A stretch of DNA of 64,000 nt from Gammaproteobacteria bacterium (GCA_011682695.1 JAACED010000002.1:1314-65313); one strand, 5' to 3'; positions 45,561 through 62,842 are shown, numbered from the stretch's first letter. The notes: generated by a model not told the origin, from the sequence alone. Translations and numbers: made by a program.

Positions 45561-45574
45561 GTTCTCTCCGATCT

Positions 45575-45622: not shown

Positions 45623-45732
45623 CCTGGAATCGAACCGAGAACGAATGAAGCCAAAACCCGAATGAGCCCTCCTTCGGACCGTGACAGCCGGGCCTGCCAC
45701 GCCCGAGGCTACCGGCGGATCGGCGTCTGATG

Positions 45733-46098: not shown

Positions 46099-46121
46099 TC
46101 GGTCACGTACCGGCGTTGCTC

Positions 46122-46607: not shown

Positions 46608-46626
46608 GTCACATCCCCAGTCGGTA

Positions 46627-47676
46627 TCACGGTTCCACGATGACCTTGAGGGCGCCTTCGCGACGTTCGTTGAAGGTCTCGAGAGCCGTGGCGAAGTCGT
46701 CGAGAGCGAAGTGGTGGGTGATCAGCTCACGCACCCTGATGCGTCCGTCCACGACGAGCGGAATCACGTGGCGCATCTCACCGGCCGAGGCACGCACGCC
46801 CACCAGTTCATTTTCGTACAGCACGAGGTTCTGAAGAGCGAGCTCGACCCCTGCAACGGGTATGCCCACCACCGCGATTCGCCCACCCTTTCGCGCCATG
46901 CCGAGGCTCCACTGCAGCGTCTGGGGAACTCCGGCACACTCGAGGATGACATCCGCACCCAGATCGTCCGTCATGCTCCTGACCGCACGAACCGGGTCTT
47001 CGGATTCGACGTCGACGGTCTCGTTGCCGAGATCGGCGGCCTTGGCGAGTCGGCTGCCCCGGCCGGCAACGATGACGCGGCCCGCACCCCTCGCTCTTGC
47101 CGCATCCGCAGCCAGCAAACCTACCGGGCCAGGACCGATCACCACGACGGTGTCTCCCGGACGATTCCCACCCCGGTTGGCCGTGTGCAGAGCGATCGAT
47201 GCCGGATCCAGAGTGGCGCCCTCGCTGAAGGTCAGTGCATCGGGAAGGTGGAACACGCTCTTCACACCGTGCACCACATACTCGGCGAAAGAACCCTGCC
47301 AGTTGTGGCCGTATTGGCGGTGCAGACGGGGGTTCCCGTAGTTCTCACACAGGTTGTAGCGGCCCTCGACGCACTTCTGACAGAAACCGCAGGCGTCGTG
47401 AGACGTTCCTGCGACCCTGTCGCCGACGTTCCAACCGAGAAGCTCGGCTCCGGGACCCATCTCCACGACCTCGCCGGACCACTCGTGACCCGGTATGAAC
47501 GGATACGAGGGGGGCCAGAAACCCGGATAGTCGCCGCGCAGCAGGTGTGAGTCCGTGCCGCAGATGGTCACCGCGCGGACCCGGCACAGCAGCTCGAACG
47601 GACCCGGCTCCGGTTGATCGACCTCTTCTACGGAGAACCGGTTCGGTTCGGTAACGACCAGCGCTCTCATCCCCAC
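46627..47676 (-). CDS. Zn-dependent medium-chain dehydrogenase (sorbitol/threonine-DH-like)
   Basis: ICGTDSH, GHEWSG, structural Zn site CGFCQKC...C, GPGPVG. Confidence 0.92.
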   Translation of the reverse strand: MGMRALVVTEPNRFSVEEVDQPEPGPFELLCRVRAVTICGTDSHLLRGDYPGFWPPSYPFIPGHEWSGEVVEMGPGAELLGWNVGDRVAGTSHDACGFCQKCVEGRYNLCENYGNPRLHRQYGHNWQGSFAEYVVHGVKSVFHLPDALTFSEGATLDPASIALHTANRGGNRPGDTVVVIGPGPVGLLAADAARARGAGRVIVAGRGSRLAKAADLGNETVDVESEDPVRAVRSMTDDLGADVILECAGVPQTLQWSLGMARKGGRIAVVGIPVAGVELALQNLVLYENELVGVRASAGEMRHVIPLVVDGRIRVRELITHHFALDDFATALETFNERREGALKVIVEP

Positions 47677-47682
47677 CTCCTT

Positions 47683-48573
47683 CTAGATAACGGCAAGCGG
47701 ATCGATCATCGACCCGGTTGCACCGCGAATCTTGACCGGCAGCGCGACAAAGAGGAACTCGTGGACCCCCTCCTGGGCGAGCTCCTCCAAATACACGCTC
47801 TCCATGAGGTAGATGCCGGCCTCGATCAGCAGCCGGGTATGGACCGGCTGCGGGTTGGCGGGCGTGCCTCGGTCGGGCGCCGGTTGAACCTCATAGGTCT
47901 CCGTGTCGGTTCCCGTCGCGACCACACCCCGCTCGAGCAGCCATTCGGCGGTGGACGCATCGGGCCCGGCGGTTTTGTGTTCGGCCATCTTTTCACTGTC
48001 CGGCCAGAAGGCCAGGTAGCCGGTGCGGATCAGGACGGTGTCCCAAGGCCGGACTTCGACGCCTTCCCAGGCGGCGATCGCCTCGAGCTCGTCGGCACCT
48101 ACCGGCGAGCCGGCAGGCAGCGCCGCGACACCGCGATACCCGGCCGCATCCAGCAGTACTCCCCGTGTGAAGAAGGGCGGGAGCTTCTCGGCGTCGCCAA
48201 CCGACGGGCCCTTGTCGGTCAAATGCTCACCGGTGTTGCCGCCGCCATACCAGTGGTCGTCCTCACCGATGGTCATGTGGGCGAGAGCATCGACATGAGC
48301 CCCCGAGTGGGAGGTGGCCATCACGTATTCGGCCATATACCCGAGGCCCACCTCGTTCGGAGGTCCCCACGGTTGGGCGCCCTCGGCGCGAATCCCCGGT
48401 GGGGTCCGGTAGTTGAGAACCTGAAAGGGCGGATGACCCGGGAAGAGAGGCATGCCCGGGAACCGTGAGGTGGCCAGCGAGAACCACCGGCCTTCCTTCA
48501 CCAGTCGTGCTGCCTCGACGATCTTGCCGGCAGGCATGTTCGCGATCGGTCCGACTTCTTCGTAGACAGTCAT
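47683..48573 (-). CDS. Cyclase-family metal-dependent amidohydrolase (kynurenine-formamidase-like)
   Basis: SHSGAHVDALAH (HxGxHxDxxxH), RGVLLD, LIRTG, ME...L..L, GATGS..P.A; start ATG 48573. Confidence 0.88.
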   Translation of the reverse strand: MTVYEEVGPIANMPAGKIVEAARLVKEGRWFSLATSRFPGMPLFPGHPPFQVLNYRTPPGIRAEGAQPWGPPNEVGLGYMAEYVMATSHSGAHVDALAHMTIGEDDHWYGGGNTGEHLTDKGPSVGDAEKLPPFFTRGVLLDAAGYRGVAALPAGSPVGADELEAIAAWEGVEVRPWDTVLIRTGYLAFWPDSEKMAEHKTAGPDASTAEWLLERGVVATGTDTETYEVQPAPDRGTPANPQPVHTRLLIEAGIYLMESVYLEELAQEGVHEFLFVALPVKIRGATGSMIDPLAVI

Positions 48574-50816
48574 CTCATCTCCTCGAGTGCCCGCCACACG
48601 CGCTCGGGCGTCAGCGGCAGATCGCGAATGACCACGCCCGTGGCGTCGGTCACCGCGGAGGCCAATGCCGGCGAGACCGCCAGAAGGGCACCTTCGCTGA
48701 TCCCCTTGATGCCGTACGGTCCCGGACCATCGGCGTTCTCGATCATCGCACTCGTGAGTTCGAGCGGAAGGTCCTTGATGGTCGGGATCCGGTAGTCCAG
48801 TGCGCCGAGATTCCGGATCCGGCCGGATCCGTCGAGAAGCACATGCTCCATGAGCGTGTGTCCCAGACCCATGATCGCCGCACCGTCGTCCTGCCCCTCG
48901 ACCTGAAGCGGGTTGAGCGCCCGGCCGACGTCACTCACGGTCACGTGGCGCACGAGAAGGATCTCGCCTGTCTCCTCATCGACCTCGGCCTCGAACGCCG
49001 TGCAGTTGAACTCGAAGAACGCCGCAGTACCACCGAGGGGGTGATCGGGCTCGACGTCTTTGCGCATCTCCCCGTTCCCGACGATCTCGCCGCCGAGGCG
49101 ACCGAGGCCGGACTGGAGCACGTCCACCGCGCAGAGTTCACGAGCAGGAAGGCGAACAACACCGCGCTCGACGACGATCTCGGACTCGTCGACCTCGTAG
49201 AGACGCGAGGCCATGGCGCGCAACTTCGCCTGGATGTCCTGGCAGGCGCGCAGAACGGCCGTGCCCATGAGCACCGATGAACGGCTGGCAGACGTCTGCT
49301 GATCGTAAGGGATCACCCCGGTGTCGCCCATGATGACCGAGATGCGGTCGAGCGGTATCCCGAGCTCCTCGGAGACTATCTGGGCGAAGACCGTGCGCGC
49401 ACCCTGGCCCATGTCAGACGTACCGCTGAGGACGAGAGCGCTCCCGTCCGCCAAGAACCTCACCGTCGAGTAGGAGAGGCCCGTTGTCGGTCCGGATTTG
49501 AGGCCCACGGCGAGCCCACGGCCACGCTTGGGCGCCGCCAGAGGAGTTCCCCACCCGATCAGCTCGGCGGCCTTTCGAACGGTCTGGGACCAGTCGCCGT
49601 CGGCCGGTGTGTCACCGGGAATGAACGTCTCCCCATGACGGGCGAGGTTGCGCAGGCGAATCTCGACCCTGTCGATTCCGAGCGCACGCGCCCCTTCGTC
49701 GATATTGGATTCTCTGGCCCAGGTGATCTGCGGAATGCCGAATCCGCGGAAGGCGGTGCTCGGCGTCGTGTGAGACAGCAGTGTTCGTCCCATGATCCGA
49801 ACTGCGGGAACACGGTACGGACCGCAGGCGAGATAACTCGCCTTCCCCACGACGCGGTCTGCGATGTCGACGTACGCCCCGATCAGGAAGTTGGCCTCTA
49901 CGTCCTGGAATGCAATCGTGCCATCCGACAGGAAACCGGTCCGAAACCGGACCTCTGTCGCCGCTCGTCGAACTGCCTGGAACGTCTCGGCAAGTGTCAG
50001 GATCAGCCGTACCGGCCTGCCGGCGCGCAGAGCCATGAACGCGAGCAGAGGCTCGTACTTGGGGATCTGCTTGCCTCCGAAACCTCCACCGGGGTCCGGC
50101 GCAAAGACACGCACCTTCGCCAAAGGCAGATCCAAGAGCTCGGCAATCGTTTTCTGCAGAAGGTACGGATGCTGAATCGAGCTCCACACTGTGATCCCGT
50201 CGCCATCGGGAGCCGCCATGAAGCCGTGAGGCTCGATCGTGAAGTGGGTGACCATCGGAAACGAGTAGGTGTTCTCGACAACGAGATCTGCCGCCGCTGC
50301 ATCGACGTCGCCCCAGCCAAAACGGTGCTCGCGCAGGATGTTCGTATCGGCCAGCGGGTCGTTTGGGCGAATCGCGTGATCCTGAACGAGCGGTGATGCC
50401 GGATCGAGCGCCGCGGCAACACCGAAGACTCCGCCGTCGAGTACCTCGTACTCCACGTGGACGAGGCGCGCTGCCTCTTCGGCCGCGTCACGCGTCTCGG
50501 CGGCCACTGCCGCCACCGGTTCGCCATGGTATTTGGTCTCGCCGACGGCGAGGATCGGCCGATCCTTGAACTTGGGGCCGAAGCGTGGGACCGGCTGCGG
50601 CAGGTCGGCGGCGGTGAGAACGAGGCGGACCCCGGGAACCTGTTTCGCTGCGGTCGCATCGATCGAGAGGATCCGGGCTCGTGCACGGTCGAGACGCACC
50701 AGCTTGACGTGAAGCACGTCGGCCAGGCGGATGTCGCCCACGTACTCCTGTGCGCCGGTGACCCGCCTGAGTCCGCCAAACCTGCGCGGTGAGCTTCCGA
50801 TGCCGTTGCAGCTCAT
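48570..50816 (-). CDS. Xanthine-dehydrogenase-family molybdopterin-binding subunit
   Basis: GGGFGGK, AFRGFGIPQ, GTSDMGQG, ASRS, QVEGQ..G, KGISE; start ATG 50816. Confidence 0.9.
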   Translation of the reverse strand: MSCNGIGSSPRRFGGLRRVTGAQEYVGDIRLADVLHVKLVRLDRARARILSIDATAAKQVPGVRLVLTAADLPQPVPRFGPKFKDRPILAVGETKYHGEPVAAVAAETRDAAEEAARLVHVEYEVLDGGVFGVAAALDPASPLVQDHAIRPNDPLADTNILREHRFGWGDVDAAAADLVVENTYSFPMVTHFTIEPHGFMAAPDGDGITVWSSIQHPYLLQKTIAELLDLPLAKVRVFAPDPGGGFGGKQIPKYEPLLAFMALRAGRPVRLILTLAETFQAVRRAATEVRFRTGFLSDGTIAFQDVEANFLIGAYVDIADRVVGKASYLACGPYRVPAVRIMGRTLLSHTTPSTAFRGFGIPQITWARESNIDEGARALGIDRVEIRLRNLARHGETFIPGDTPADGDWSQTVRKAAELIGWGTPLAAPKRGRGLAVGLKSGPTTGLSYSTVRFLADGSALVLSGTSDMGQGARTVFAQIVSEELGIPLDRISVIMGDTGVIPYDQQTSASRSSVLMGTAVLRACQDIQAKLRAMASRLYEVDESEIVVERGVVRLPARELCAVDVLQSGLGRLGGEIVGNGEMRKDVEPDHPLGGTAAFFEFNCTAFEAEVDEETGEILLVRHVTVSDVGRALNPLQVEGQDDGAAIMGLGHTLMEHVLLDGSGRIRNLGALDYRIPTIKDLPLELTSAMIENADGPGPYGIKGISEGALLAVSPALASAVTDATGVVIRDLPLTPERVWRALEEMR

Positions 50817-51292
50817 CGCTCCCCCGTTTCGGCGGCGGTGAGCACCGCCTCGGTGATCTGCACGTATCCCGCGCATCGGCACAGGTTGCCCGCCAAGGCC
50901 TCGTGGACCTCATCGACGGTCGGGTGAGGGTTCTGTTTCAGCAGGGCGTGCGCCGACATCAGCTGGCCGGGGATGCAGAATCCGCACTGCGGAGCGCCCT
51001 TGTCGAGGAACGCCTCCTGCAGCGGACCGAGGCGGCCGTCGCCTGCGAGACCCTCGACCGTCATGATCTCGCATCCCTGTGCTTCCACGGCCAGCATGAG
51101 ACAGGAGTTGACCGAACGGCCGTCGACGAGCACCGTGCAGGCACCGCACTCGCCCTCCGTACAACATTCCTTCGTGCCGGTGAGCTCCAACTGGTCGCGC
51201 AGGACCTCCAAGAGCGTGTGGTGCGGTGCCACCTCGATCGAGCATCGCCTGCCGTTGACGGTCAAGACCACCGTGGTCCCTGCCTGCGTCAC
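50813..51292 (-). CDS. XDH-family 2x[2Fe-2S] subunit
   Basis: GTKECCTEGECGACT, NSC, QCGFC, GNLCRC. Confidence 0.93.
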   Translation of the reverse strand: MTQAGTTVVLTVNGRRCSIEVAPHHTLLEVLRDQLELTGTKECCTEGECGACTVLVDGRSVNSCLMLAVEAQGCEIMTVEGLAGDGRLGPLQEAFLDKGAPQCGFCIPGQLMSAHALLKQNPHPTVDEVHEALAGNLCRCAGYVQITEAVLTAAETGER

Positions 51293-52152
51293 AGCACCCT
51301 CCTCAGCCGTCCGAGAGCGGTTGCGAGTGTCCGTTTGCCGAGCACCGTCAGCATCGCCTGCCGGTATTCGCGGCTTGCCCGTACATCGGAGATCGGGCTC
51401 GCCTGCGCTGCGAGATCTTTCAGGAGGCGCTCCTTGTCTTCCTCGCCCACTGCCGGGTCCGCGAGGCGCCCGCTCCGATCGTCGACGACGAACGCCGTCG
51501 GTCCGACCGCACCGTAGGCGAAGCGGGTGACGCCATCTCCTGTGACCGAACAGGCGACATTGACCGTGGCCAGATCCATCCCTCTGCGCCGGGCGATCCG
51601 CTCGAATGCAGCCCCGATCGGCCGTTCGGGAAACGGCAGATCGATCGAGGTGACGATCTCGTCGGGTCGCAGGACCGTTTGCCCCGGCCCGACGAAGAAC
51701 TCGACCAGCGGAACCCGGCGCTCGCCCGACCCGCTCACCGTATTCACGACCGCGTTGTAGATCATCAGCGCGGGGACCGTATCCGCGGCGGGCGATGCGT
51801 TGCAGATGTTCCCGGCAAGCGTGGCTCGATTGCGGATCTGGACCGATCCGACCACCGATGCCGCCTCGACCAAGGCGGGGAAGGCATCCTTGACGCGTTC
51901 GTCATCGATCACGTCGGTGAGCACGACGGCCGCACCGATCCGCAAGGCACCATCGTGCTCGGTGATTCCGGGTCGCAGCTCCGCCACCCGCTTGAGATCG
52001 ATCACGATGCGCGCCGACAGCTTCCCGGACCGCATGCCGACGATCAGATCGGTTCCGCCGGCGAGGACGCGAGCCTGCGAACCGTGCTCGTTCAGCAGGC
52101 TCAACGCCTCCGACAGGTTGTCCGGCCGCGCGTATTCGAACGTGTGCATCAC
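51289..52152 (-). CDS. XDH-family FAD-binding subunit
   Basis: LAGGTDL, SVQIRNRATLAGN..NASPAAD, ISDVRAS.EYR. Confidence 0.93.
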   Translation of the reverse strand: MMHTFEYARPDNLSEALSLLNEHGSQARVLAGGTDLIVGMRSGKLSARIVIDLKRVAELRPGITEHDGALRIGAAVVLTDVIDDERVKDAFPALVEAASVVGSVQIRNRATLAGNICNASPAADTVPALMIYNAVVNTVSGSGERRVPLVEFFVGPGQTVLRPDEIVTSIDLPFPERPIGAAFERIARRRGMDLATVNVACSVTGDGVTRFAYGAVGPTAFVVDDRSGRLADPAVGEEDKERLLKDLAAQASPISDVRASREYRQAMLTVLGKRTLATALGRLRRVL

Positions 52153-52224
52153 GACGATCCGCCGGTTCGCGCAATCGGTCGATCCGACTCTGGGTTGTCT
52201 GCACCCGCCTTCATCGGACTCCTC

Positions 52225-53103
52225 TCAGATGACCTTGTCGACCTCATCCATCAGCACTTGGGGTGTGGCAGCGCGCACGAAGAAGTACGGCAGATCGCAG
52301 AACGACTGCACGAATGCGGCACGCTTCTTGCGGAGAGTTTCGGTGTCGACGATGGGCATCGGCCACCCCGGAGCGAGCAGCTCGTTCAGCAGGAAGTAGT
52401 TCTGCAACGAGTGCAGTGTCTGAAACTGCGCCTCGAAGGGAATCATCTCCACCAGGCTGGGTGCGAAGTTGCCGTCGATCGCCGGCACCACCACAACGTC
52501 GACCTTGCTCGGCTCCTCACAGGTCTCCCACGTGGGCATCTCACCGAAGAACTTGGTCACGCCCTGATTGGGGGCGGCCTTATCCGCTCGTTCGGTTCCC
52601 TTGGCCCGCTTCTTCAGGAACACGTCCTTGGATCCCATGACCGCGGTTCCGGACTCGTCGATCACCGTCGTCTCCGTGGACACCAGCCGGCCACCGCGCC
52701 TGCACGCCTCGATCTGGCCCATGCTCTTGCCGTGGTTCGACTCGCCTCCCAGGAAGACGACCGTCTTGTCACGATACCGCACCGCGGAGGCGTGAAACGG
52801 GTGCAGGCCGATGGCTTCCATCCTCAACGCCAGCATGGTCACGATGACCTTCTGGATCGGTCCTTCTGCCCAGTCACCATCGAAGGTCATGACGCTGCCG
52901 TCGTACGAGATCGCCTTGGCGCCGTCCTGATTCCAGATGATGCCCGGAGCACTCGACGTGACCTCGGGTTCGATGCGCACATCGGCCAACCGGTAGTTGA
53001 GGAAGCTCATGTCCTCGAGCACATGGTCCCTGGGGTGGGATCCGTAGACATCCACCCGCAGGCGTGCATCCCCAGCAGACATCTCCTCCGATAGTTGCAT
53101 CAT
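52225..53103 (-). CDS. HprK/PEPCK-like P-loop protein of unknown function
   Basis: FHASAV...VFLG followed by Walker-A GESNHGKS; LVSTETTVID where HprK has its acidic motif. Confidence 0.6.
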   Translation of the reverse strand: MMQLSEEMSAGDARLRVDVYGSHPRDHVLEDMSFLNYRLADVRIEPEVTSSAPGIIWNQDGAKAISYDGSVMTFDGDWAEGPIQKVIVTMLALRMEAIGLHPFHASAVRYRDKTVVFLGGESNHGKSMGQIEACRRGGRLVSTETTVIDESGTAVMGSKDVFLKKRAKGTERADKAAPNQGVTKFFGEMPTWETCEEPSKVDVVVVPAIDGNFAPSLVEMIPFEAQFQTLHSLQNYFLLNELLAPGWPMPIVDTETLRKKRAAFVQSFCDLPYFFVRAATPQVLMDEVDKVI

Positions 53104-53160
53104 GTTTCTGCTCCCTAATCGCGGCGCATCGGTGATGACCGCATCGTTTCTCTCTTCTTC

Positions 53161-53343
53161 TCAAACGGTTGTGAGCACTCCACCGAGACCGGTCGGCCTC
53201 TCCGGACCCAAGGCCCCCGACGGCGACGTCGGGGCGTCGCTCATCGACGGAGCGATGCGGACGGCCGAGACGACGAGACCGCTCAGCGTGCGCACGGCTT
53301 GCGCAGGCGGTGCCGGGTGTCTCCACTCGTCGGACTCAATCAT
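53161..53343 (-). CDS. Possible 60-aa small protein
   Basis: Start overlaps the gntR 3' end, mostly G/C third positions, fills most of the gap; no recognisable motif. Confidence 0.25.
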   Translation of the reverse strand: MIESDEWRHPAPPAQAVRTLSGLVVSAVRIAPSMSDAPTSPSGALGPERPTGLGGVLTTV

Positions 53344-54046
53344 CCTCCCTGGCGCCGGAGGTCTTCTTACCGAACATCGATTCGTCCATGGACAGGATCA
53401 GCTCCTGGGCTTCACGGGCATGGACCCGCATGGCCTCACCCGCTCTCTCCGGATCTCGAGCTTCGAGCGCTTCGACGATGCCGGCATGACGCTGCGTGAG
53501 CCATGTCAGGTCGGTTCCGGGGGCCATGGCGGTGACGTAGGTGCGGGCGTACGGCTCCAGCATCGACCATATCCGTTCCAGGGTCTTGTTGCCGGATGCT
53601 CGCACCACGGTCGCGTGGAATTCGGTGTTGTTCAACGCATGGGCATGGGCGTCCCCGGCGTCGGCGAAGCCCTGCATCTCGTCGATCAGCCCTCGAAGAT
53701 CTGCCAGCACACCGTCATCGATGCGCTTGCAGGCCTGCCTGGCGGCGAGCGCCTCCAACTCTGCGCGCACCTCCATCGCCTCCACGAGCTCGACTTTCGT
53801 CGGTCGCCGGACACGAGCACCGCGATAGGGCTCCATATCGACGAGACCGAGCGTCGCCAGGTCCCGGAGCGCCTCGCGCACCGGGGCCTGGCTCGTTCCG
53901 AGTTCGCGGGCGATCCGGGTCTCGACGATACGAGACCCGGGTGCCAGCTCGCCCTCGAGGATCTGCTGCAAGATCCGGTCCTTCACCTGCGCACTCAGTA
54001 CGTTGCGCTCCACGGGATCCGAACGATGCCCGGTTGGACCGCTCAT
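53336..54046 (-). CDS. GntR-family transcriptional regulator (FCD ligand-binding domain)
   Basis: wHTH (ETRIARELGTSQAPVREAL..L...GLV) plus FCD (NTEFH, H..IVEAL...D...A...M..H). Confidence 0.93.
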   Translation of the reverse strand: MSGPTGHRSDPVERNVLSAQVKDRILQQILEGELAPGSRIVETRIARELGTSQAPVREALRDLATLGLVDMEPYRGARVRRPTKVELVEAMEVRAELEALAARQACKRIDDGVLADLRGLIDEMQGFADAGDAHAHALNNTEFHATVVRASGNKTLERIWSMLEPYARTYVTAMAPGTDLTWLTQRHAGIVEALEARDPERAGEAMRVHAREAQELILSMDESMFGKKTSGAREDD

Positions 54047-55830
54047 GTCTTGAATAGGTCAGACCCGATAACGTCTCCCTCCTTGTCCCCCTCGGCGAGG
54101 ATCTCCACGACGCCAGTCGAACCGTTGACCCGAAGGCGGTCTCCCGTTCTGATCTTCTCCGTCGCCACCGAGGTCCCGATCACGGCCGGGATGCCAAACT
54201 CACGGGCGAGTACAGCCGGGTGTGACGTGAGACCTCCCGCGTCGGTCACCAGGCCGCTGATCTTTGTGAACAGGGTAACCCAGGCGGGGTTGGTCATCTG
54301 GCAAACCAGGATGTCGCCCTTGTTGACCAAGTCGAACTCGTCGACGCTGAGCACCACCTTGGCGGTCCCCTGGTACACGCCGGGCGATGCGGCCAGACCC
54401 GCGATCTGATCCTCGGCCTCCGGCTGTTCCATGTAGAGCCGATCCGGGAATCCCCAGAGGCCCAGGTAGGGGAACTCGAGCTGAGACTCGGTCGCCGTGC
54501 CGATCCAGTCCTTCGGCCGAACCGTGTAGGCAGCCTCTCGCTCCGCCTTGCGTGTGGCAACGATGCTGCGTGCATCGAAGTTCTCCGGATCGCCCAGGAA
54601 GTACCGCAGCTCGTTGTACTTCAGGTAGATCACGTCGTCTGCTTCGTCGAGGACCCCCATCTTTACCAGATGGCGGCCGATGCACACGAGAACCAACCGC
54701 AAGTGGGCGTTGCTGCCCTGGTCGATATAGAAGTGGTGATCCGGTGTCAGCGGAGCCATCTTCAGGTTGATCTCGTTGGCAGCCTTCATCTTCTCGAGCG
54801 CCTCGCCTTCGAGACCCTCGAGGATCTCGGCCGAGGCCGCGGCGATGTCCTCCGCGAGGTGCTTCACAGTGGACGGGTAGTCATAGTCCGTCTCGAGGTA
54901 TCCCTTGATGACTTCGAGCACCGGCTGGGCCCTCTCGAACCGGGTGGCGAAGATGAACTCGTGACTCCACACGGCGTGCCAGCCGAACTCGCGCTGATAC
55001 GGCTTGAGCCGCTCTGCAATGAACTTCTGGCCCCGCTCGGAAGCCTCGAGGGCCTCGAGCACCTCGGTACCGGTGTCCCTGGAGAACATCTCCGATAGCT
55101 CGGCGTCGCCCTTGATCTCCTCTTTCATCTTCCACAGGGCGCCGATCGAGTCCCAGTTGCGGTCCTCGGCAGAGTTCTGCAGCCGGCCCAAGAGCACCGG
55201 ATCGGCCTCGCCCCGCACTTCTTCCATGACGGCCTGAAGATTGAGCGTCGCCGAGAGCTGAGCAAAGTTCAGCATCCAGTGGATCTTCCAGTGACGATCG
55301 TGGATGTCCATCGCATCTTCGAGGATGGTCGCCCACTCCATGAGCGGGATCTCCTCCCAGCGATCGATGCGATCCTCCAGATAGTCGAAGTTCCTGCGCA
55401 TCTCCGGCACCAACCGGTCCCGCCACCAGTCCGCAAAGTTCTGTCCATACGTCGGCAGGACCGCGCCCAGATAGGCGCCGATCTTGGACGCGTACTCCGG
55501 ATCGTCCTTGGGGACCCGCGGGTAGTAGACGTTGGAGTACTCCATCGATTCGACCTTGAAGTCCGGATCGGCCGGTACCGCCGCGGTGTAGAGATACCCG
55601 TTGACGTTCTTGGCGATCCAGTCCGAAGCGAAGGGGGTGCCGAACCTGCGGAACATGTGGTCACAGGTCAGCCACCATCCTCCGATGTCGAAGTACATCG
55701 GCGACAGCGGCTGCGGGCAGTGCAGGTCGTCGTAGACCCAGAAGAGGCCCTTCTCCCCCTCGTTGTCCCAGTCGATCGGGAAGTCCTCATCGCCCAGGAA
55801 CTGCTTGATGATCTTGCTCTCGTCCGCCAT
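54043..55830 (-). CDS. PEP-utilising-enzyme family protein: substrate-binding domain + C-terminal His-swivel domain, no ATP-grasp (PpsA/RPH-like subunit)
   Basis: C-terminal GLAASPG, ILVCQMTNPAW, GGLTSHPAVLAREFGIPAV; N-terminal FWVYDDLHCPQPLSP...NGYLY; AAGGAGG RBS. Confidence 0.85.
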   Translation of the reverse strand: MADESKIIKQFLGDEDFPIDWDNEGEKGLFWVYDDLHCPQPLSPMYFDIGGWWLTCDHMFRRFGTPFASDWIAKNVNGYLYTAAVPADPDFKVESMEYSNVYYPRVPKDDPEYASKIGAYLGAVLPTYGQNFADWWRDRLVPEMRRNFDYLEDRIDRWEEIPLMEWATILEDAMDIHDRHWKIHWMLNFAQLSATLNLQAVMEEVRGEADPVLLGRLQNSAEDRNWDSIGALWKMKEEIKGDAELSEMFSRDTGTEVLEALEASERGQKFIAERLKPYQREFGWHAVWSHEFIFATRFERAQPVLEVIKGYLETDYDYPSTVKHLAEDIAAASAEILEGLEGEALEKMKAANEINLKMAPLTPDHHFYIDQGSNAHLRLVLVCIGRHLVKMGVLDEADDVIYLKYNELRYFLGDPENFDARSIVATRKAEREAAYTVRPKDWIGTATESQLEFPYLGLWGFPDRLYMEQPEAEDQIAGLAASPGVYQGTAKVVLSVDEFDLVNKGDILVCQMTNPAWVTLFTKISGLVTDAGGLTSHPAVLAREFGIPAVIGTSVATEKIRTGDRLRVNGSTGVVEILAEGDKEGDVIGSDLFKT

Positions 55831-55861
55831 GTTGCCTCCTTTGTTGATCGGCGCCGGTTTC

Positions 55862-56689
55862 CTAGCGACTGATACTCTTGAACCTCTTCATGTTTGCGGT
55901 CATGGCGATCTCCGTGGGCAGACGCTCCATGCTGGATGCACCAAAGAATCCTGCAACACCGGTCGTGTTGGTGAGGACATACGCGGCATCCTCCGGCTCC
56001 GCGATCGGGCCTCCGTGACACAGGACGATGATGTCGTCTCTCACCGCGACCGCTGCGTCGCGGATCCGTTGCACGCGTTCGGCCGCTCCCTCGATCGTCA
56101 GGGCGGTCTCGGCGCCTATCGAGCCCTTCGTGGTCAGCCCCATGTGGGCCACGACGACGTCCGCTCCCGCCTCTGCCATCGCCTGGGCCGAGTCCTCGTC
56201 GAACACATAAGGGGTCGTCAGCAGGCCCTTCTCGTGGGCCAGGCGGATCATCTCGACCTCGAGGTCATAGCCCATCCCGGTCTCTTCGAGGTTCTTGCGG
56301 AATGTTCCGTCGATCAGCCCGACCGTCGGGAAGTTCTGTACACCGGCGAAACCCGTCTCATCCACCAAGTCCAGGAACTTGTCCATCAGCCGGAATGGAT
56401 CGGTGCCGCACACTCCCGCCAGGACCGGCGTGTGCTTTACGATCGGCAGGACCTCGCTGGCCATGTCGATCACGATCGCGTTGGCGTCGCCGTACGGCAT
56501 GAGCCCGGCGAGCGACCCTCTCCCCGCCATGCGATACCGACCGGAGTTGTAGATGATGATGAGATCCGTCCCACCTGCCTCGGCGCACTTCGCCGAGATA
56601 CCGGTGCCGGCTCCCGCTCCGATGATCACGCCACCGTCGTCGAGCGTCTTGCGCAACTTCGCCAGCGCCTCTTGTCCCGTCATGGTCAT
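55862..56689 (-). CDS. TIM-barrel 'phosphoenolpyruvate hydrolase-like' protein (UPF0261/Tm-1 partner)
   Basis: [57 protein letters not shown]. Confidence 0.88.
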
Positions 56690-56712
56690 GGTCGTCCTCC
56701 CCTGTCTCCTTG

Positions 56713-57951
56713 TCAGGCTTGCGGGCGTGATGCCGCCCAGGCTCGATAGTGCTCGTCGAGGCGTCGCGCCATGGCAGTGGCGAACTCCGGGTCGTTCACG
56801 TCGGTGTCCATCTCGATCACCTCGACCGACGGGTCCAGGTGAGCCTTCAGTTCCCTGATCAGCGCCTCGTCGGCGTCCGGGTCATAGAACACGCCCCCCT
56901 CCGTGGCGATCGCCGATACGCCCTTGAGGGGAATGAACACCGTCAGCGGGCCTTTGGCCTCGTTCAGCTTGGCCGCGATCGTGCGTCCCAGCTGTGCACA
57001 CTCTTCCGGAGTCGTCCGCATCAATGTGACCGTAGGGTTGTGCACATAGAGGTTGCGATCCTTGTACTTGTCCGGAACCGTGCTGATCGGTCCGAAGTTG
57101 CACATGTCGAGCGCGCCGAGGGAAACGACTTGCGGTATGCCGAGCCGGCCGGCCATTTCGAGTCGGTCCGGTCCGGCCGAGAGCACGCCACCGACCAGCT
57201 CGTCGACGAGTTCGGTGGTCGTGATATCCAGGGATGCGGTGATGTAGCCGCTCTCCATGAGCGCTTCCATAGACTGCCCCCCGGTCCCTGTGGCATGGAA
57301 GACCAGAACCTCGTAGCCGTGATCCTCCAGCCACTCGCGAGCCGCTGTCACCGACGCCGTCGTCACCCCGAACATGGTTGCTCCAACGAGCGGCCTCCCC
57401 GTATCCGCGGGAACATAGGCCTCGTGGGCTTTCGCCATGCCTGCGATGCCCGCGGCTGCATTCCCCAAGATCCTCGCCGAGATCTCGTTGATGCCCGCGA
57501 TGTCGACCACCGAGTACATCATGGCGATATCGGCCGTGCCGACGTATGGGCGGGTATCGCCCGATGCCATCGTTGAGACCAGCAGCTTCGGCACACCAAT
57601 CGGAAGCAGGCGCATCGAATAGCTGATCAGCGATGAACCGCCCGATCCCCCGAGGCCGAGAATCCCGTTGAGCCGACCTTTCTGATGCAGGTCCTGGACG
57701 ATCACGGCGGCGCCTCGCGCCATGGCCTCGACTGCCGCTCCCCTGTCGCCGGCATTCACCAAATCTTCGAGATCCACTCCGGCGGCGGCTGCCACGTCGG
57801 CACGCGAGTAGTCGGTTGGGTACTCAGGGTCGCCCAGGACTCCTGCGTTGATCACGACGACGTCACAGTTCGCCTCGGCGATCCTGTCTTTCAAGAAGGC
57901 GTACTCGGTTGCCTTCGTATCCAGTGTTCCAAGCAATACGACTGTTGCCAT
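56713..57951 (-). CDS. Tm-1-like ATP-binding domain protein (UPF0261)
   Basis: [51 protein letters not shown]; start ATG 57951. Confidence 0.9.
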
Positions 57952-57953
57952 TG

Positions 57954-58691
57954 TCAATCCTCGTGTTCCTGCTTTTCTCCGTGCGGGCTGACACCCAGGT
58001 ACTGGCGCTGCGCGTCGCGATCGGCGAGCATCCGTTCGGAGGTTGTTTCGAGTGCAATCCTTCCACCAACCATCACTGCAAGACGGTCCGAGACGCTCGT
58101 CGCGACACCCAGGTTCTGTTCGATGAGGAGCAACCCGATTCCGTGCTCCTTCAACCCTTGCAGAATCTCGACGAGCTGATCGACGATGACCGGTGCCAGG
58201 CCTTCCGATGGCTCGTCCATCACCAACAACCGGGGATGGAGCAACAGCGCTCGTGCGATGGCCAGCATCTGCTGCTCACCGCCGGACAGCAGCGAAGCAC
58301 CGAACGCCCGGCGATCCGCCAGGGGTGGGAACAGCTCGTACACACGATCGATGTCCCAAGCGTTGGCACTGCCTTTCCTCTCTACGAGTCTCAAGTGCTC
58401 CGCCACGGTGAGGGAAGGGAACAGCCTCCGGCCCTGCGGCACATACCCGAGGCCCTGAGCGGCAATCCAGTGGGTCTTTCGGTTGGTCAACTCGGCGCCG
58501 TCGAACACGATACTGCCCGAGGCCGCCGGAACGAGTCCCATGATCGCGTTGCAGAGCGTTGTCTTTCCCATGCCGTTTCGCCCGATCAGCGAGATCGGCT
58601 CATCGCCTACCGTCAGGTCGACATCCTGCAGCACATGGCTGCGCCCGTAGTAGGCATTGAGCGACTTGATCTGGAGCAGTGCCTCACTCAT
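57954..58691 (-). CDS. Branched-chain-amino-acid-type ABC transporter ATPase (LivF-like)
   Basis: GRNGMGKT, LSGGEQQ, MDEPSEGL, EQN. Confidence 0.93.
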   Translation of the reverse strand: MSEALLQIKSLNAYYGRSHVLQDVDLTVGDEPISLIGRNGMGKTTLCNAIMGLVPAASGSIVFDGAELTNRKTHWIAAQGLGYVPQGRRLFPSLTVAEHLRLVERKGSANAWDIDRVYELFPPLADRRAFGASLLSGGEQQMLAIARALLLHPRLLVMDEPSEGLAPVIVDQLVEILQGLKEHGIGLLLIEQNLGVATSVSDRLAVMVGGRIALETTSERMLADRDAQRQYLGVSPHGEKQEHED

Positions 58692-59460
58692 GTCCGCGGG
58701 CTCCTAGGTAGATGTCCAGGACGACTTGGTTGTCCTGGATCTCGTCCGGATCGCCCTCGGCGAAAATGGACCCGTTGTGCATCACCGTCACCCAGTCGGC
58801 GGCTTGCAGCGCCACATCCATGTCGTGCTCGATGAGAATCACGGTGATCGTCCCCGGTAATCCTCCCAGAAGGGCCAACAGGTCGGCGCGCTCACTCGGA
58901 GACAACCCTGCCGCAGGCTCGTCGAGCAGGAGCAATCGGGGAGACGATGACAAGGCCATGGCGATCTCCAACTGGCGCTGTTGTCCATGCGACAGTGAGA
59001 CGACACCCGTATCGAGTTCGGATGTCAACCCGACCGACTCGGCCAGTTGTTCCACCGCTGCATGGTCGCGATCGTTCCTGGTCGGCCGCCGGAAGCTGAG
59101 CCGCCTCGGTTTGACGCCTCGGACACCGAGGAAAATGTTGTCGCGAACGCTCAGCCCACCGAAGAGCAGCGACGTCTGGTAGGTGCGGGCCAGACCCATT
59201 CGCGTCCGCTTGTGCGCCGGCAGGTCGGTGATCTTCTTGCCAAAGAGGTAGACGTCGCCCGACGTGGGCAGGTAGTCCCCTGCGATCACGTTGAAGAGCG
59301 TCGTCTTGCCTGCCCCGTTCGGACCGAGGATCGCGCGCCGCTCTCCTTCAGCGATCTCCATCGTTACGTCTCGTACGGCTTGCAGCGCGCCGAAGCGACG
59401 CCCCACGCCCTGCAGTTGCAGGGCGGGGACGTTCGCTTCTGGGCTCGCCTTATCGATCAC
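58684..59460 (-). CDS. ABC transporter ATPase (LivG-like)
   Basis: GPNGAGKT, LSHGQQR, LDEPAAG, IEHDM. Confidence 0.93.
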   Translation of the reverse strand: MIDKASPEANVPALQLQGVGRRFGALQAVRDVTMEIAEGERRAILGPNGAGKTTLFNVIAGDYLPTSGDVYLFGKKITDLPAHKRTRMGLARTYQTSLLFGGLSVRDNIFLGVRGVKPRRLSFRRPTRNDRDHAAVEQLAESVGLTSELDTGVVSLSHGQQRQLEIAMALSSSPRLLLLDEPAAGLSPSERADLLALLGGLPGTITVILIEHDMDVALQAADWVTVMHNGSIFAEGDPDEIQDNQVVLDIYLGARGHE

Positions 59461-60860
59461 GGACAGCTTGGGTACTCTCGAGATGGACCCTGGTAGGTCC
59501 CGTTCGGGAAGAAGAAGTCCTCGGGCTCTCCAAGCGTCTGGTTCACCTGCTCGGCGACCTTGACCAGCTTGTTGTACAGCACGCCATCGGCACGTTCGGT
59601 GACCTCGGTCACGTACTCGTTCGCGATCGCGTTCTGGTTGTGATCCACGCTGACCATACCGGTCGGAGACTCGTACTCGAGGTTGCGCAGCGCCTCACGG
59701 AAGGCCTCCTGCCCACCCGACAAGTCTCCGCCGACCTCTTCGAGTGCCAGCAGGGCCGCCTTGGCATCCACGAAGTAGCCATGTGCGAACAGCGACGGCA
59801 GCGGGAACCGAATCCCGGTCAGCGGGTAGTCCTTGCCTTCCTCCCAGAGCGTCTGATATGCCTTGACCCAGTCCACGTAGACCTGGTCCTGGATATCGTC
59901 GGCGATGGGACCTGCCGCCGGCGTACCGATCACGACCTCTCGGATCCGGGGAGCCTTCGCTCCGAGGATCGACTGGTCGACGGTGATCGAACCACCAACG
60001 AGAGGCAGATCCAGACCGAAGTCCAGCATCTGCGTCAGGAAGTTGATGGCGTCGTTGCCACCCAAGGCGACATACACGGCGTCGAGATCGGAAATGCCCT
60101 GGATCTCGGCGATGATCGAGCTGTAGTCCGTCTCACCGAGCGGGGTCCACAGCTTCTTTGCCACGGTGCCACCCTCCCGACAGAACTCGATCATGAAGCC
60201 CTCGACCTGGCTGTAGGGGAACGAGTAGTCCTCGCCGAGGGTCACCATCTTGCGATAACCCTTTTCGTTGTAGGCATAACTCCCGAGACCCGCCTGCCAC
60301 TGGACACCGTCGGTGCCCCAGCGGAAGAAGTTCCTCGAGCGGATCTCCGGATCCATCGTCGTGTCCTGCGCTGCAGAGGTACCGTTCAACATCGTCTTGT
60401 CCGGTACGCCTTGCATGTAGCGAGCCAGGTTGATCCCCTCATCGCCGGACAGTGGTCCGATGATGATGTCCACGTTGTCTTCTTCGAACAGCTTGCGAGC
60501 TTTGTCACGAGCCACCTCGGCTGTGGCGTCGGTGCTCTCAACGAACACCTCGATCGGGTGACCGGCAACGACCGCGCCTTTGCCCTCACTGTCGCCACCG
60601 AATTCGGCCAGCGCCATGTAGACACCCCGGATGCCATCCTTGCCGGGTTCGACGAAAGGCCCTTCCAGCGTGGCAAGTACACCCAGCCTGATGACCTCAC
60701 CACCCGACGCGGCAGCCGCCGTGGTACTTGTGGTCGTTGCATCCGCAGACGGTGCCGCAGCCGTTGTCTCGGTGGTGCCTCCGCCACAGGCGGTGGCAAT
60801 CAGCGCCAACGCGAGGAACAGGGCTAGCACTGCCCACGATCTTCTCCAGTTCTGACTCAT
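59457..60860 (-). CDS. ABC transporter substrate-binding lipoprotein (type I, LivK/amide/aromatic-type)
   Basis: ATG 60860; lipobox LIATAC, Thr/Ala-rich linker, IIIGPLSG..G, LGEDYSF, P.GETDYS. Confidence 0.88.
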   Translation of the reverse strand: MSQNWRRSWAVLALFLALALIATACGGGTTETTAAAPSADATTTSTTAAAASGGEVIRLGVLATLEGPFVEPGKDGIRGVYMALAEFGGDSEGKGAVVAGHPIEVFVESTDATAEVARDKARKLFEEDNVDIIIGPLSGDEGINLARYMQGVPDKTMLNGTSAAQDTTMDPEIRSRNFFRWGTDGVQWQAGLGSYAYNEKGYRKMVTLGEDYSFPYSQVEGFMIEFCREGGTVAKKLWTPLGETDYSSIIAEIQGISDLDAVYVALGGNDAINFLTQMLDFGLDLPLVGGSITVDQSILGAKAPRIREVVIGTPAAGPIADDIQDQVYVDWVKAYQTLWEEGKDYPLTGIRFPLPSLFAHGYFVDAKAALLALEEVGGDLSGGQEAFREALRNLEYESPTGMVSVDHNQNAIANEYVTEVTERADGVLYNKLVKVAEQVNQTLGEPEDFFFPNGTYQGPSREYPSCP

Positions 60861-60930
60861 CCGACTCTCCCTCCTTCGGGTCGTCCCGTCACGGTCTTCC
60901 CTTGGTGTTGTCCCGCTTATGTCTTCGCAG

Positions 60931-61959
60931 TTATGAAAGCTCTGATTCCACGGTCTCCTCTCCCTCCGAAAGCACGGCCTCCCCCTTGAGCGGGGTACGT
61001 CGCAGCGCTCGGCGAACACGGGCAGGAATCCCCAACAGCCCGTTGGGCGAGAGGATCAGCAACGCGACAAAGACCAGCCCGATGATTGTGTTGAACCGTT
61101 CACGGGTGAAGAACTCGGCCGTGAACGTATCTGCCACGTTGAAGAAGACCGCACCGAGGAATGCCCCCTCTGCGTACGCGATGCCTCCAACGACCGCAAC
61201 GATCAGAATGTCGATGTTGCGCGTCAGGTCGACCACCGATGGGGACATGTTGACCCGGTGCCAAACCATCAGGATGCCACCCAGCCCGGCGATGAAACCT
61301 GCGAAGCCGAACGCCAGCACCTTGTGCAGACCCACCCAGTACCCGAGCGAGCGCATCCGCCGAGGGTTGTCCCGTATCCCCTGCAAGGCCAGACCGAACG
61401 GCGCCCGGCCCACGTAGCGCACGAGTGCATACACGAAAGCGGCGATGACCAGTGAGAAGTAGTAGAAGGAGTTCGGGGACTGCAGGTCGAGTGGCCCGAT
61501 CTTCGGAGGCGGCACGGGACCGATGCCCCGATGACAGTTGAAGATCTCACAGTTCTGGTTCGCGAAGAAGAACACCAGCATCCCCAGGGCGAGAGTGATC
61601 ATCAGCAGATAGATCCCCTCGGTGCGCACGGAGATGAGTCCGAACAGCGCCCCGGCGAGCGTCGCAACCAGGACCCCGAGGACGACCCCGAGCAGCCAGC
61701 TACCCGTCTCGTGGAAACCGACGTACGCCACCGCGTAGCCGGCGAGCCCCGCAGTGGCCAGCTGGGCGAAGGAGATCATCCCGCCGAACTTGACGAGGAA
61801 GATCAGACTTAATGCGATGATGCCCATCCACAGCGACTTGCTGGCGATCTCCGTCACCCAGAACTCGGACACGAGCACCGGGAGCAGGACCAGGAACACC
61901 GCCAGAACCGCTCCGACGGCGACTCTCCAGTCCTTCAGCGCGGCAACGATCCGATCCAT
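60931..61959 (-). CDS. ABC permease (LivM-like)
   Basis: GMISFAQ, EGIY..MITLA, PFG.ALQGIRDN..R..SLG, GG.....GA.LG. Confidence 0.92.
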   Translation of the reverse strand: MDRIVAALKDWRVAVGAVLAVFLVLLPVLVSEFWVTEIASKSLWMGIIALSLIFLVKFGGMISFAQLATAGLAGYAVAYVGFHETGSWLLGVVLGVLVATLAGALFGLISVRTEGIYLLMITLALGMLVFFFANQNCEIFNCHRGIGPVPPPKIGPLDLQSPNSFYYFSLVIAAFVYALVRYVGRAPFGLALQGIRDNPRRMRSLGYWVGLHKVLAFGFAGFIAGLGGILMVWHRVNMSPSVVDLTRNIDILIVAVVGGIAYAEGAFLGAVFFNVADTFTAEFFTRERFNTIIGLVFVALLILSPNGLLGIPARVRRALRRTPLKGEAVLSEGEETVESELS

Positions 61960-61966
61960 GATCTGG

Positions 61967-62842
61967 CTAGAACCCCTCTCGTGCTTCCCGGCCGAACAGG
62001 CCCCGCGGCCGAAGTGCCAGGACGAGGGTCATCAGCGCAAACGTGACCAGAGGCGCGTAGGTGGAGATGTACGCCAGGCTGTACTGGCTGGCCATGCCCA
62101 CCAACAGGGCGCCCACTGCTGCGCCACCGAGGCTGCCCATGCCGCCGACGATGACCACGACCAGCGACGCCACGAGGAACCGGGCATCTTCTCCGGGAAT
62201 GATGGAGAACGCCGTCCCCCCGATCACCCCGGCGAAGCCTGCCAGGAATGCTCCGAGGGCGAATACGACGACGAACACCCGGGCGACGTTGACACCGAGG
62301 GCCGAAAGCATGTCCCGGTCGTCGATACCTGCTCGAATCGTCATGCCGAGCTTGGTTTTGGACAGGAGAAGCCACAGGAGCACGCCGAGCACGGTGGCGA
62401 TCACGACCAGGAAGAGCCGATAGGTGGGATAGCGAATTGCGAGGAGGGGGATCAGCGTGGCGCCTCTGAGGAAGTCGGGGTACGGGAACTGGTAGGCGAA
62501 TCCTCCGTAGCGAGCGAGCATCTGGTCGGCGATGACGATCGAGATTCCAATGGTGATCATCGCCTGTCGAAGATCCTCCCCCTGCATCCAACTGAAGATC
62601 CCCACCTGCAAAAGGATGCCCAGCAGCATCATTGCGAACGCCCCGACGATGAGCCCCAGCCACCAGTTGCCGGTGGCGTCGCCGACCTCCCAACCCAGGT
62701 AGGCGCCGGCGAGATAGAGCGAACCGTGGGCCAGATTGACGATGCGCATGACACCGAAGATGAGGCTGAAGCCACTCGCCACGATGAAGTAAAGGGCGGC
62801 GAGCGTGATGCCATTGAAAGAAGAGATCAGAAACTTGTCCAC
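61967..62842 (-). CDS. ABC permease (LivH-like)
   Basis: ASGFSLIFGVMRIVNLAHG, G...RA..D...M...G, VVVIVGGMGS..GA. Confidence 0.93.
   Translation of the reverse strand: MDKFLISSFNGITLAALYFIVASGFSLIFGVMRIVNLAHGSLYLAGAYLGWEVGDATGNWWLGLIVGAFAMMLLGILLQVGIFSWMQGEDLRQAMITIGISIVIADQMLARYGGFAYQFPYPDFLRGATLIPLLAIRYPTYRLFLVVIATVLGVLLWLLLSKTKLGMTIRAGIDDRDMLSALGVNVARVFVVVFALGAFLAGFAGVIGGTAFSIIPGEDARFLVASLVVVIVGGMGSLGGAAVGALLVGMASQYSLAYISTYAPLVTFALMTLVLALRPRGLFGREAREGF

Follow-up and report, generated by a model that had tools for sequence, protein, structure and literature searches.

The subfamily of two-component small-molecule dikinases has been recognised only since 2025. Among them, HpeH, CreH and PpsA share ~45% pairwise identity, RPH is the only solved structure alignable with the greater part of HpeH, and the Cre and Hpe pathways follow a phosphorylate-transform-dephosphorylate logic (PMC12167813). 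A genetic link between a dikinase and a molybdenum enzyme has been known since 2020. The molybdenum hydroxylase HpdA1-4 of Ensifer adhaerens HP1 converts 3-hydroxypyridine to 2,5-dihydroxypyridine, the conversion needs co-expressed orf9 ('pyruvate-phosphate dikinase') and orf10 ('PEP-utilizing protein mobile subunit'; PEP, phosphoenolpyruvate), and knock-out of either orf9 or orf10 abolished growth (Wang et al. 2020, bioRxiv 10.1101/2020.01.08.898148). No follow-up on orf9/orf10 was found in a literature search. The present analysis concerns a gene in a 64,000-nucleotide stretch of DNA from a Gammaproteobacteria bacterium (GCA_011682695.1, JAACED010000002.1:1314-65313; this whole stretch is called the window, and positions are counted from its first letter). 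The gene, at 54043-55830 on the minus strand and hereafter called the target, is read, with a probability of about 0.6, as coding for one subunit, the acceptor and phosphocarrier, of an ATP-dependent dikinase for small molecules that is split into two components and belongs to the HpeH/CreH/PpsA/AcvA class.

The open reading frame (ORF) was translated into 595 aa; the plus strand at the same position is full of stops. The original prediction had delimited this ORF correctly and quoted two strings that are present in it (FWVYDDLHCPQPLSP at aa 30-44 and NGYLY at aa 77-81), while missing that it lies on the minus strand. At least 589 relatives were found in species-representative genomes, the best 80 being 63-90% identical, and because of this strong conservation the target is judged from sequence to be a real gene under selection. 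An RPH-type acceptor (substrate-binding) domain (aa ~1-470) is followed by a phosphohistidine swivel domain (aa 503-573). The sole Pfam match in a direct scan was the PEP-utilizers mobile domain (PF00391, aa 503-573, E 4.5e-25), to which the precomputed Pfam annotation of the protein's database cluster adds PF27448 ('Rph_4th'); no PPDK_N/ATP-grasp domain was found by Pfam scan of the 595-aa chain. The swivel motif, TDAGGLTSH537, matches the T/SxxGGxxxH pattern of the acceptor subunits of two-component dikinases. The codon of the catalytic His537 (TDAGGLTSHP) was placed at 54220-54222 (minus strand) from the motif and the orthologue alignment, and G532, G533, H537, P538 and many acceptor-domain residues were invariant across 53 aligned orthologues. 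Matches to the NCBIfam models PRK08296, PigC/RedH and RPH started only at aa ~225-380 and were all far under their cutoffs. A single-chain RPH was tried as an identity and rejected: NF041857 scored 126.5 bits against a cutoff of 999, over aa 381-578 only, and the target is without ATP-grasp.

A sequence search of the PDB with the whole target matched only the C-terminal 200 aa (RPH and PEP synthases); for the acceptor domain a comparison of folds was needed. An AlphaFold2 model was built from the 53-sequence alignment (pLDDT 87.8, pTM 0.88) and compared by Foldseek. Full-length matches were obtained with RPH-Lm only (5fbt, 5fbu and 5hv1; for 5fbt, E 8.8e-20, query-normalised TM-score (TMq) 0.63, 20% identity, ~618 columns), and PPDK, EI and pyruvate kinase matched in the swivel domain only. 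As a stand-in for Thauera PpsA, the CreH orthologue from the cre-type cluster of Rhodococcus oxybenzonivorans pRB98 was used, a cluster that comprises genes for a P450, an ATP-grasp protein, the PEP-utilizing enzyme, an SDR, a ferredoxin, a reductase, an HD phosphohydrolase and an aldehyde dehydrogenase. BLASTP aligned it with aa 30-578 of the target (26% identity, E 6e-38), beginning exactly at FWxxDxxHxP (FWVYDDLHCP in the target, FWFCDSQHWP in the CreH orthologue) and also covering GYLY (NGYLY and LGYLY), W..H..LN and HxFYI[DE]. Because the CreH alignment runs end to end, N-terminal region included, and the model matches RPH and nothing else over its full length, the PpsA/CreH/HpeH-like reading holds: the original prediction of a PpsA-class acceptor/His-swivel subunit without ATP-grasp is borne out. 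An RPH-type acceptor domain with a swivel His and no nucleotide-binding domain is, as judged from sequence and model, the architecture of the large subunit of two-component small-molecule dikinases.

With RPH alone matching it structurally over its full length in the PDB, the target might also be a split RPH-like resistance enzyme, a phosphotransferase that inactivates antibiotics or xenobiotics. This is very improbable. Identity to RPH is just ~20%, the gene lies within a catabolic operon with importer, regulator and oxidoreductase genes, and its synteny with a molybdenum enzyme is kept in soil and marine lineages as well as thermophilic ones.

A maximum-likelihood tree of 41 full-length relatives placed the target and its Thermomicrobium roseum homologue in one clade (support 99/100), apart from the CreH-/HpeH-like clade. 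Pro directly after the catalytic His marks the target clade, and close kinship with the characterised phenolic kinases was not upheld (26% identity against ~45% among them; Met absent two residues before the His). Four metagenomic chains of 1300-1450 aa (P0172, P0185, P0227 and P0262) have one ATP-grasp domain and two acceptor-plus-swivel units, from which it appears that two swivel domains can share one ATP-grasp domain. In P0172 (1333 aa), a second acceptor-plus-swivel unit comes after an RPH-like chain, and this make-up ruled it out as a Rosetta-stone fusion of the target with the PPDK-like protein described below.

Domain architecture and N-terminal motifs are common to the whole PpsA/CreH/HpeH class and would be expected equally of an ordinary phenylphosphate synthase alpha subunit (PpsA) of anaerobic phenol catabolism whose carboxylase is encoded elsewhere. 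That explanation is effectively refuted. A search for UbiD (PF01977) in the target's own genome (2.58 Mb, 127 contigs, 99.47% complete) gave 0 matches; the target stands in its own clade at 26% identity to CreH; its likely partner is of PPDK type with a swivel domain of its own, not of PpsB type; and its linkage to a molybdenum enzyme is invariant. As the genome is without UbiD, the target is not tied to phenylphosphate carboxylation. The absence of a phenylphosphate carboxylase, which had been claimed for the window, thus extends to the whole genome, with no UbiD-family gene elsewhere. The accompanying claim that the downstream chemistry should differ agrees with what the operon encodes, namely an XDH-family molybdenum enzyme, a cyclase-family hydrolase, a zinc-dependent alcohol dehydrogenase and a low-molecular-weight (LMW) phosphatase.

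One part of the original prediction did not stand in the form given. The Thr two residues before the catalytic His is present (Thr535, GGLTSH), and it had been pointed out as the residue whose phosphorylation regulates PPDK and PEP synthase. Among 71 orthologues with a readable motif, position -2 was V in ~33, T in 23 and A in 15, and it was L in T. roseum, Bacillus canaveralius and Zhaonella. CreH-/HpeH-like proteins carry Met there, in agreement with the Met documented in the literature for HpeH, CreH, PpsA and RPH; the target clade carries T, V, A or L. The regulatory protein PDRP/DUF299 (PF03618) gave 0 matches in the target's own genome. The neighbouring P-loop gene was tried as a regulator of the Thr and rejected, Thr occurring alike with and without it in the 39 full loci. 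Since the residue varies, no PDRP gene is present and Thr does not track the P-loop gene, PPDK-style regulation via Thr535 is unlikely to be a conserved feature.

Neighbour counts were taken from a scan of one genome per species, in which 39 loci had full 10-kb flanks. Genes for the three subunits of an XDH-family molybdenum enzyme lie beside the target gene in 39/39 of these loci, and they also do so in three cultured carriers whose target homologue is 43-48% identical; the link between dikinase and molybdenum enzyme is strict and no oddity. In the window (all on the minus strand) they are a CoxM/XdhB-type FAD-binding subunit (51289-52152; PF00941, PF03450), a CoxS-type [2Fe-2S] subunit (50813-51292; PF01799, PF00111) and a CoxL-type molybdopterin subunit (48570-50816, ~748 aa from Met23; Pfam MoCoBD_1/2). 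Other neighbours in the 39 loci were PPDK-like genes (31), GntR (29), the P-loop gene (25), cyclase and alcohol dehydrogenase genes (17), UPF0261 (6), a PEP-hydrolase-like gene (3) and the LMW phosphatase gene (1).

The probable ATP-binding partner of the target is the PPDK-like protein encoded at the far end of the operon (43401-45611, minus strand; PPDK_N and PEP-utilizers domains), a gene that had been overlooked, together with the published precedent of the Ensifer 3-hydroxypyridine (3hpd) cluster. The protein has an ATP-grasp domain, a swivel His of its own (GGLASH, conserved in 37/39 homologues) and no PEP/pyruvate barrel, and its core scored 495.8 bits against the NCBIfam model of truncated PPDK (NF004531/PRK05878; cutoff 456). 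The ORF as called encodes 901 aa, of which the first 165 are a low-complexity read-through of the adjoining spacer; because this stretch runs over repeats and homologues are 705-756 aa long, the start was set at Met166, which gives ~736 aa. A tandem repeat of 21 bp x 3 at 44028-44090 codes for an acidic (E/G/D/T/S) linker that joins the swivel domain to a C-terminal domain of ~190 aa. The latter gave weak winged-helix matches, 32% identity to a free-standing 206-aa Diaphorobacter protein and ~30% to a 207-aa archaeal protein. The PPDK-like protein is 43% identical to a 506-aa Diaphorobacter 'PPDK', and the gene for the 206-aa protein sits between the PEP-utiliser gene and the gene for this 'PPDK'. 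The module in question (Diaphorobacter sp. HDW4B plasmid, L092 7927-12727) encodes DUF7065 (304 aa), a PEP-utilizing enzyme (572 aa), the 206-aa protein and the truncated PPDK (506 aa), and adjoins Rieske dioxygenase genes, not a molybdenum enzyme. The target's own genome holds two PPDK_N genes only and four swivel domains, which belong to the target, the PPDK-like protein, a complete 917-aa PPDK with a PEP-binding barrel (contig 70, L093 1521-4274) and PtsI (Enzyme I; contig 38, L098 4953-6665). The PtsI gene adjoins DRL-type oxidoreductase and aldolase genes. The PPDK-like gene is the only orphan PPDK_N gene in the genome, and so offers the target its only spare ATP-grasp domain; it lies in the same operon as the target, and on this basis it was assigned as the partner. 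Of the 31 PPDK-like genes counted above, 26 were clearly of the long form and several others were cut by locus ends; short ATP-grasp-only genes replace the PPDK-like gene in T. roseum, B. canaveralius and Zhaonella.

The genes from 43401 to 62842 are co-oriented on the minus strand, most being joined by 4-8 nt overlaps or short gaps. Furthest upstream is a Liv/Urt-type ABC importer (57954-62842; two ATPases, a Peripla_BP_6 binding protein and two permeases; Pfam, NCBIfam), followed by a UPF0261/Tm-1-like ATP-binding protein (56713-57957; PF06792, PF23189) and a PEP-hydrolase-like TIM barrel (55862-56689; PF09370, E 3.8e-133), both accessory by the counts given above. This pair travels with the Liv-type importer as an optional upstream module, its members being 68% and 76% identical, respectively, to the T. 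roseum pair. To the UPF0261 family belongs MarK, a kinase that converts ATP to ADP, acts on acetovanillone and other aromatics and functionally takes the place of the AcvAB/HpeHI dikinase (PMC12624787); with a MarK-family gene beside split-dikinase genes, two different kinase systems would therefore stand in one operon. Downstream of the target are a GntR/FCD transcriptional regulator (53336-54046; PF00392, PF07729), whose start overlaps the target stop by 4 nt, the P-loop gene and the molybdenum enzyme genes. These are followed by a cyclase-family metal-dependent hydrolase (47683-48597; PF04199; PDB 5ibz, E 3e-25), which also occurs in the T. roseum, B. canaveralius and archaeal clusters, a zinc-dependent alcohol dehydrogenase (46627-47676; PF08240, PF00107; best NCBIfam models IolM and Tdh, both under cutoff) and an LMW phosphotyrosine-type phosphatase (46122-46607; PF01451, E 4.6e-17) with its CX5R motif intact (CTGNIGRS). 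The phosphatase, whose gene is also found in L008-L010, is a candidate for removing phosphate from an aryl or enol phosphate. Between it and the PPDK-like gene lies a repeat-bearing spacer of ~510 nt (45612-46121) with two near-perfect tandem arrays found by TRF (24 bp x 2.5 at 45764-45824, 100% match; 29 bp x 3.1 at 45862-45950, 98%), which could hold an internal promoter or operator. An Rfam scan over 43-64 kb gave no match.

The region at 36-43 kb holds genes for a split transketolase, a cupin, an SDR, an MBL-fold protein, a PHP protein and a luciferase-like protein. The MBL-fold hydrolase (39325-40179, plus strand) is 50% identical to the product of the MBL gene directly after the P-loop orthologue in the Zhaonella cluster, and SDR and MBL genes also flank the cluster in L007, L008 and L030. 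Because of this kinship and these flanks, the functional island may extend into the 36-43 kb region. No homologue of the Zhaonella PHP protein was detectable in the window, though a PHP gene is present at 41602-42501.

The best 80 relatives came from Acidimicrobiia, Chloroflexota (Limnocylindria and others), Dormibacterota and a few Acidobacteriota- or proteobacterial-labelled bins. Within the window's own class an orthologue was found in 7/201 genomes (5/102 genera); this narrow occurrence, with 65-70% identity across phyla, indicates by sequence distribution an accessory island that is mobile by horizontal transfer. The genome comes from a marine sediment metagenome, and the public runs are of DNA only (marine sediment, vent and marine metagenomes). 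Among cultured carriers, the cluster of T. roseum DSM 5159 (megaplasmid, TRD_RS09585-09660; target homologue 48% identical) encodes the Liv-ABC importer, Tm-1-like and PEP-hydrolase-like proteins, GntR, cyclase, an ATP-grasp-only protein (323 aa), a hypothetical protein, CoxM, FAH, ABM, the PEP-utiliser, CoxL and CoxS. That of B. canaveralius (44%) encodes a MocA-like protein, an ATP-grasp protein (375 aa), GntR, the PEP-utiliser, cyclase, CoxG/SRPBCC, CoxM, CoxS, CoxL, a histidine phosphatase, ABM, FAH, XdhC and MFS, its molybdenum enzyme being four-component like HpdA. In Zhaonella formicivorans (43%), CoxS, CoxM, CoxL, GntR and PHP genes are divergent from those for the PEP-utiliser, an ATP-grasp protein (318 aa), a P-loop orthologue and an MBL hydrolase. 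A plasmid collection (PLSDB) searched with the target and PPDK-like queries yielded the T. roseum orthologue, cre-like and hpe-like clusters and the Diaphorobacter module; an Ensifer-type (3hpd-like) cluster was not found there with these queries. Matches in Rhodococcus LW-XY12 and Rubrobacter were examined as 3hpd-like clusters and rejected, their contexts being unrelated or the protein a full-length PPDK.

From these gene contents we infer the following route. ATP would be bound by the truncated PPDK-like protein's ATP-grasp domain, and His537 would be (pyro)phosphorylated there, directly or via a relay from the swivel His of the partner. The swivel domain would then swing back and deliver the phosphate to a phenolic, heteroaromatic or enolic hydroxyl of a compound imported by the Liv-type system. 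The phosphorylated compound would be the true substrate of the CoxLMS-type molybdenum enzyme, and the molybdenum step would most likely be a ring or C-H hydroxylation comparable to that of 3-hydroxypyridine to 2,5-dihydroxypyridine in Ensifer. The LMW phosphatase would later take the phosphate off (in other clusters histidine-phosphatase or PHP proteins would do so), the product would be processed by the cyclase-family hydrolase and the alcohol dehydrogenase, and the GntR/FCD regulator would sense the substrate or an intermediate. The presence of a phosphatase in the operon fits the logic of the Cre and Hpe pathways.

Several points, taken up in this and the next three paragraphs, weigh against the dikinase reading. 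Dikinase activity is a prediction for the whole clade, and at ~5/39 loci no PPDK-like gene lies within 10 kb. An aromatic substrate is not assured, because some relatives stand in sugar/inositol-like contexts. In one such locus (L030 7908-18724, a sub-branch with 69% identity), genes for a Peripla_BP_4 ABC transporter, a GFO/IDH/MocA protein and a xylose-isomerase-like TIM barrel are followed by the target homologue, a 247-aa protein, CoxMSL, SDR, MBL and a histidine phosphatase, and the P-loop protein is absent.

The partner, moreover, is not of the ATP-grasp-only PpsB/HpeI/CreI type (~40 kDa for PpsB), having a swivel domain and an additional domain at its C-terminus; with a conserved swivel His on the partner as well, either protein might phosphorylate the other. 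For Ensifer, no phosphorylated intermediate was detected and the role of orf9/orf10 was left open (bioRxiv 10.1101/2020.01.08.898148). Two conserved swivel His domains, the missing intermediate, a partner domain with winged-helix matches and an adjoining HprK-like P-loop protein would all suit a phosphorelay or regulatory role, in which phosphate from the PPDK-like His, or from PEP via the PEP-hydrolase-like barrel, would be handed on to a protein or cofactor, for instance in order to switch on the molybdenum enzyme. Such a role is unlikely, given that the acceptor domain is homologous to the small-molecule-binding domains of RPH and CreH with its motifs conserved, that the operon has a dedicated aryl-phosphate-type phosphatase, that the second His is absent in relatives with ATP-grasp-only partners, and that the PEP-hydrolase-like gene occurs in so few loci.

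A further difficulty is posed by a Thermococcales-like archaeal contig (L103, JGI 3300028675, 4065-13579). Its genes for a target homologue (38%), a P-loop homologue (37%), the 207-aa domain protein and a cyclase adjoin two genes of the tungsten AFOR family as well as genes for a ThiS-like protein, a cupin and a polyferredoxin; no ATP-grasp gene lies within 9 kb, and tungsten AFOR genes stand in place of the XDH-type enzyme. The P-loop protein of the window (52225-53103, minus strand, 292 aa) is without a Pfam match. Its aligned orthologues, which include those of the Zhaonella (44%) and archaeal clusters, share the invariant motifs HPFHASAV, LGGESNHGKSM, STETT, GTERADKA, IDGN and NELLA, and the best Foldseek match of its AlphaFold2 model (pLDDT 89.7) was ATP-dependent PEPCK (E 3e-8, TMq ~0.46), with HprK/P next. 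The invariant GESNHGKS, the many invariant charged residues, the PEPCK-like fold and the archaeal gene set would be compatible with the P-loop protein itself being the nucleotide-dependent donor for the target or its substrate, the PPDK-like protein then having a separate role. We give this little credence: the P-loop gene is absent in 14/39 full loci, T. roseum and B. canaveralius are without it yet keep the ATP-grasp gene, and an ATP-grasp partner is used by all characterised members of the class. The P-loop protein appears from its conservation to be a further component of the system.

The molybdenum step might also run in the reductive direction, because the CoxL subunit is closest to a reductive enzyme. 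Its best solved relative was the alpha subunit of 4-hydroxybenzoyl-CoA reductase (1rm6_A; E 1.4e-95, 324 bits), ahead of quinoline 2-oxidoreductase (Qor; E 1.8e-71, 245 bits). With this relative in mind, together with the archaeal locus, where tungsten AFOR-family genes and a ferredoxin accompany the kinase subunit and the P-loop protein, and the strictly anaerobic life of some carriers (Zhaonella, Tepidanaerobacter), an ATP-driven reductive dehydroxylation may be considered. A phosphate ester on the phenolic or heteroaromatic hydroxyl would serve as a leaving group and would be removed, without a CoA thioester, by a molybdenum enzyme resembling 4-hydroxybenzoyl-CoA reductase (in archaea, by tungsten AFOR). 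This route is improbable. The FAD subunit has just two Cys, so that the [4Fe-4S] loop is lacking; in 4-hydroxybenzoyl-CoA reductase this insertion feeds in low-potential electrons. In addition, the catalytic Glu typical of hydroxylases is retained in the CoxL alignment, the sole experimental precedent is an oxidative hydroxylation, and the window's operon encodes neither a ferredoxin nor a low-potential donor.

Beyond the dikinase reading itself, a broader proposal is put forward tentatively, and as one that is more likely wrong than right. The acceptor/swivel protein, the P-loop protein and the ~200-aa domain would make up a mobile 'phospho-tagging' module of ancient origin, with an obligatory coupling to redox enzymes that depend on a pterin (in bacteria the XDH-family molybdenum enzymes, in the archaeon tungsten AFOR), the phosphate being a chemical handle or leaving group needed by the molybdenum or tungsten centre and not a mere uptake trap. 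If so, the module might drive an ATP-dependent hydroxylation or a CoA-independent reductive dehydroxylation of (hetero)aromatics.

No description exists to date of this clade, of a partner that adds a second swivel His and a further domain, of the PEPCK/HprK-like protein or of the alternation of molybdenum and tungsten enzymes. The clade has spread by transfer through Acidimicrobiia, Chloroflexota, Dormibacterota, Bacillota and Thermomicrobia, with an archaeal version alongside tungsten enzymes, and it brings with it two unstudied conserved proteins, the PEPCK/HprK-like P-loop protein and the ~200-aa domain. The cultured carriers T. roseum, B. canaveralius and Z. formicivorans make it directly testable why a molybdenum or tungsten enzyme would need a phosphorylated substrate, and the answer could reveal a new way in which soil and marine bacteria that are abundant but uncultured activate heteroaromatic or phenolic compounds.

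Compared with known systems, the target shares with PPDK and PEP synthase, as regulated by PDRP, the swivel domain and a GGxTxH motif with Thr at position -2; it differs in being without ATP-grasp and PEP/pyruvate barrel, in a Thr that is not conserved and in a genome without PDRP. RPH of Listeria monocytogenes (PDB 5fbt, 5hv1) resembles the target over the whole protein, acceptor and swivel domains alike, and presumably also in a swivelling phosphohistidine mechanism, whereas RPH is a single chain with an N-terminal ATP-grasp domain, is ~20% identical and serves resistance, not catabolism. With HpeHI (Rhodococcus rhodochrous GD02), CreHI (Corynebacterium glutamicum), AcvAB (Sphingobium SYK-6) and PpsAB (Thauera aromatica), the target has in common an RPH-type domain plus swivel His with the ATP site on a separate chain (PMC12167813), and with these phenolic dikinases also the FWxxDxxHxP, GYLY, W..H..LN and HxFYI[DE] motifs and a pathway phosphatase. 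It differs from them in its 26% identity to the CreH orthologue and its own clade, in T/V/A/L at position -2 and Pro after the His, and in a partner of PPDK type with its own swivel His and an extra C-terminal domain; downstream, the phenolic dikinases feed a UbiD carboxylase, a biotin carboxylase or a P450, whereas the target locus has a molybdenum hydroxylase-type enzyme. From the 3hpd cluster of Ensifer the locus differs in its P-loop protein, cyclase hydrolase, alcohol dehydrogenase, LMW phosphatase and UPF0261 and PEP-hydrolase-like pair. A separate SRPBCC/CoxG subunit (HpdA3; PF06240) was not among the scanned ORFs of the cluster, small ORFs being unscanned, and no maleamate-pathway domain was present among its annotated genes, no dedicated genome search for NicX-type genes having been made. 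In both clusters, as compared by gene description, a PEP-utiliser/PPDK-like pair adjoins an XDH-family multi-subunit molybdenum enzyme, with GntR and an ABC transporter, and by this analogy the Ensifer 3hpd cluster appears to be the closest precedent for the target locus.

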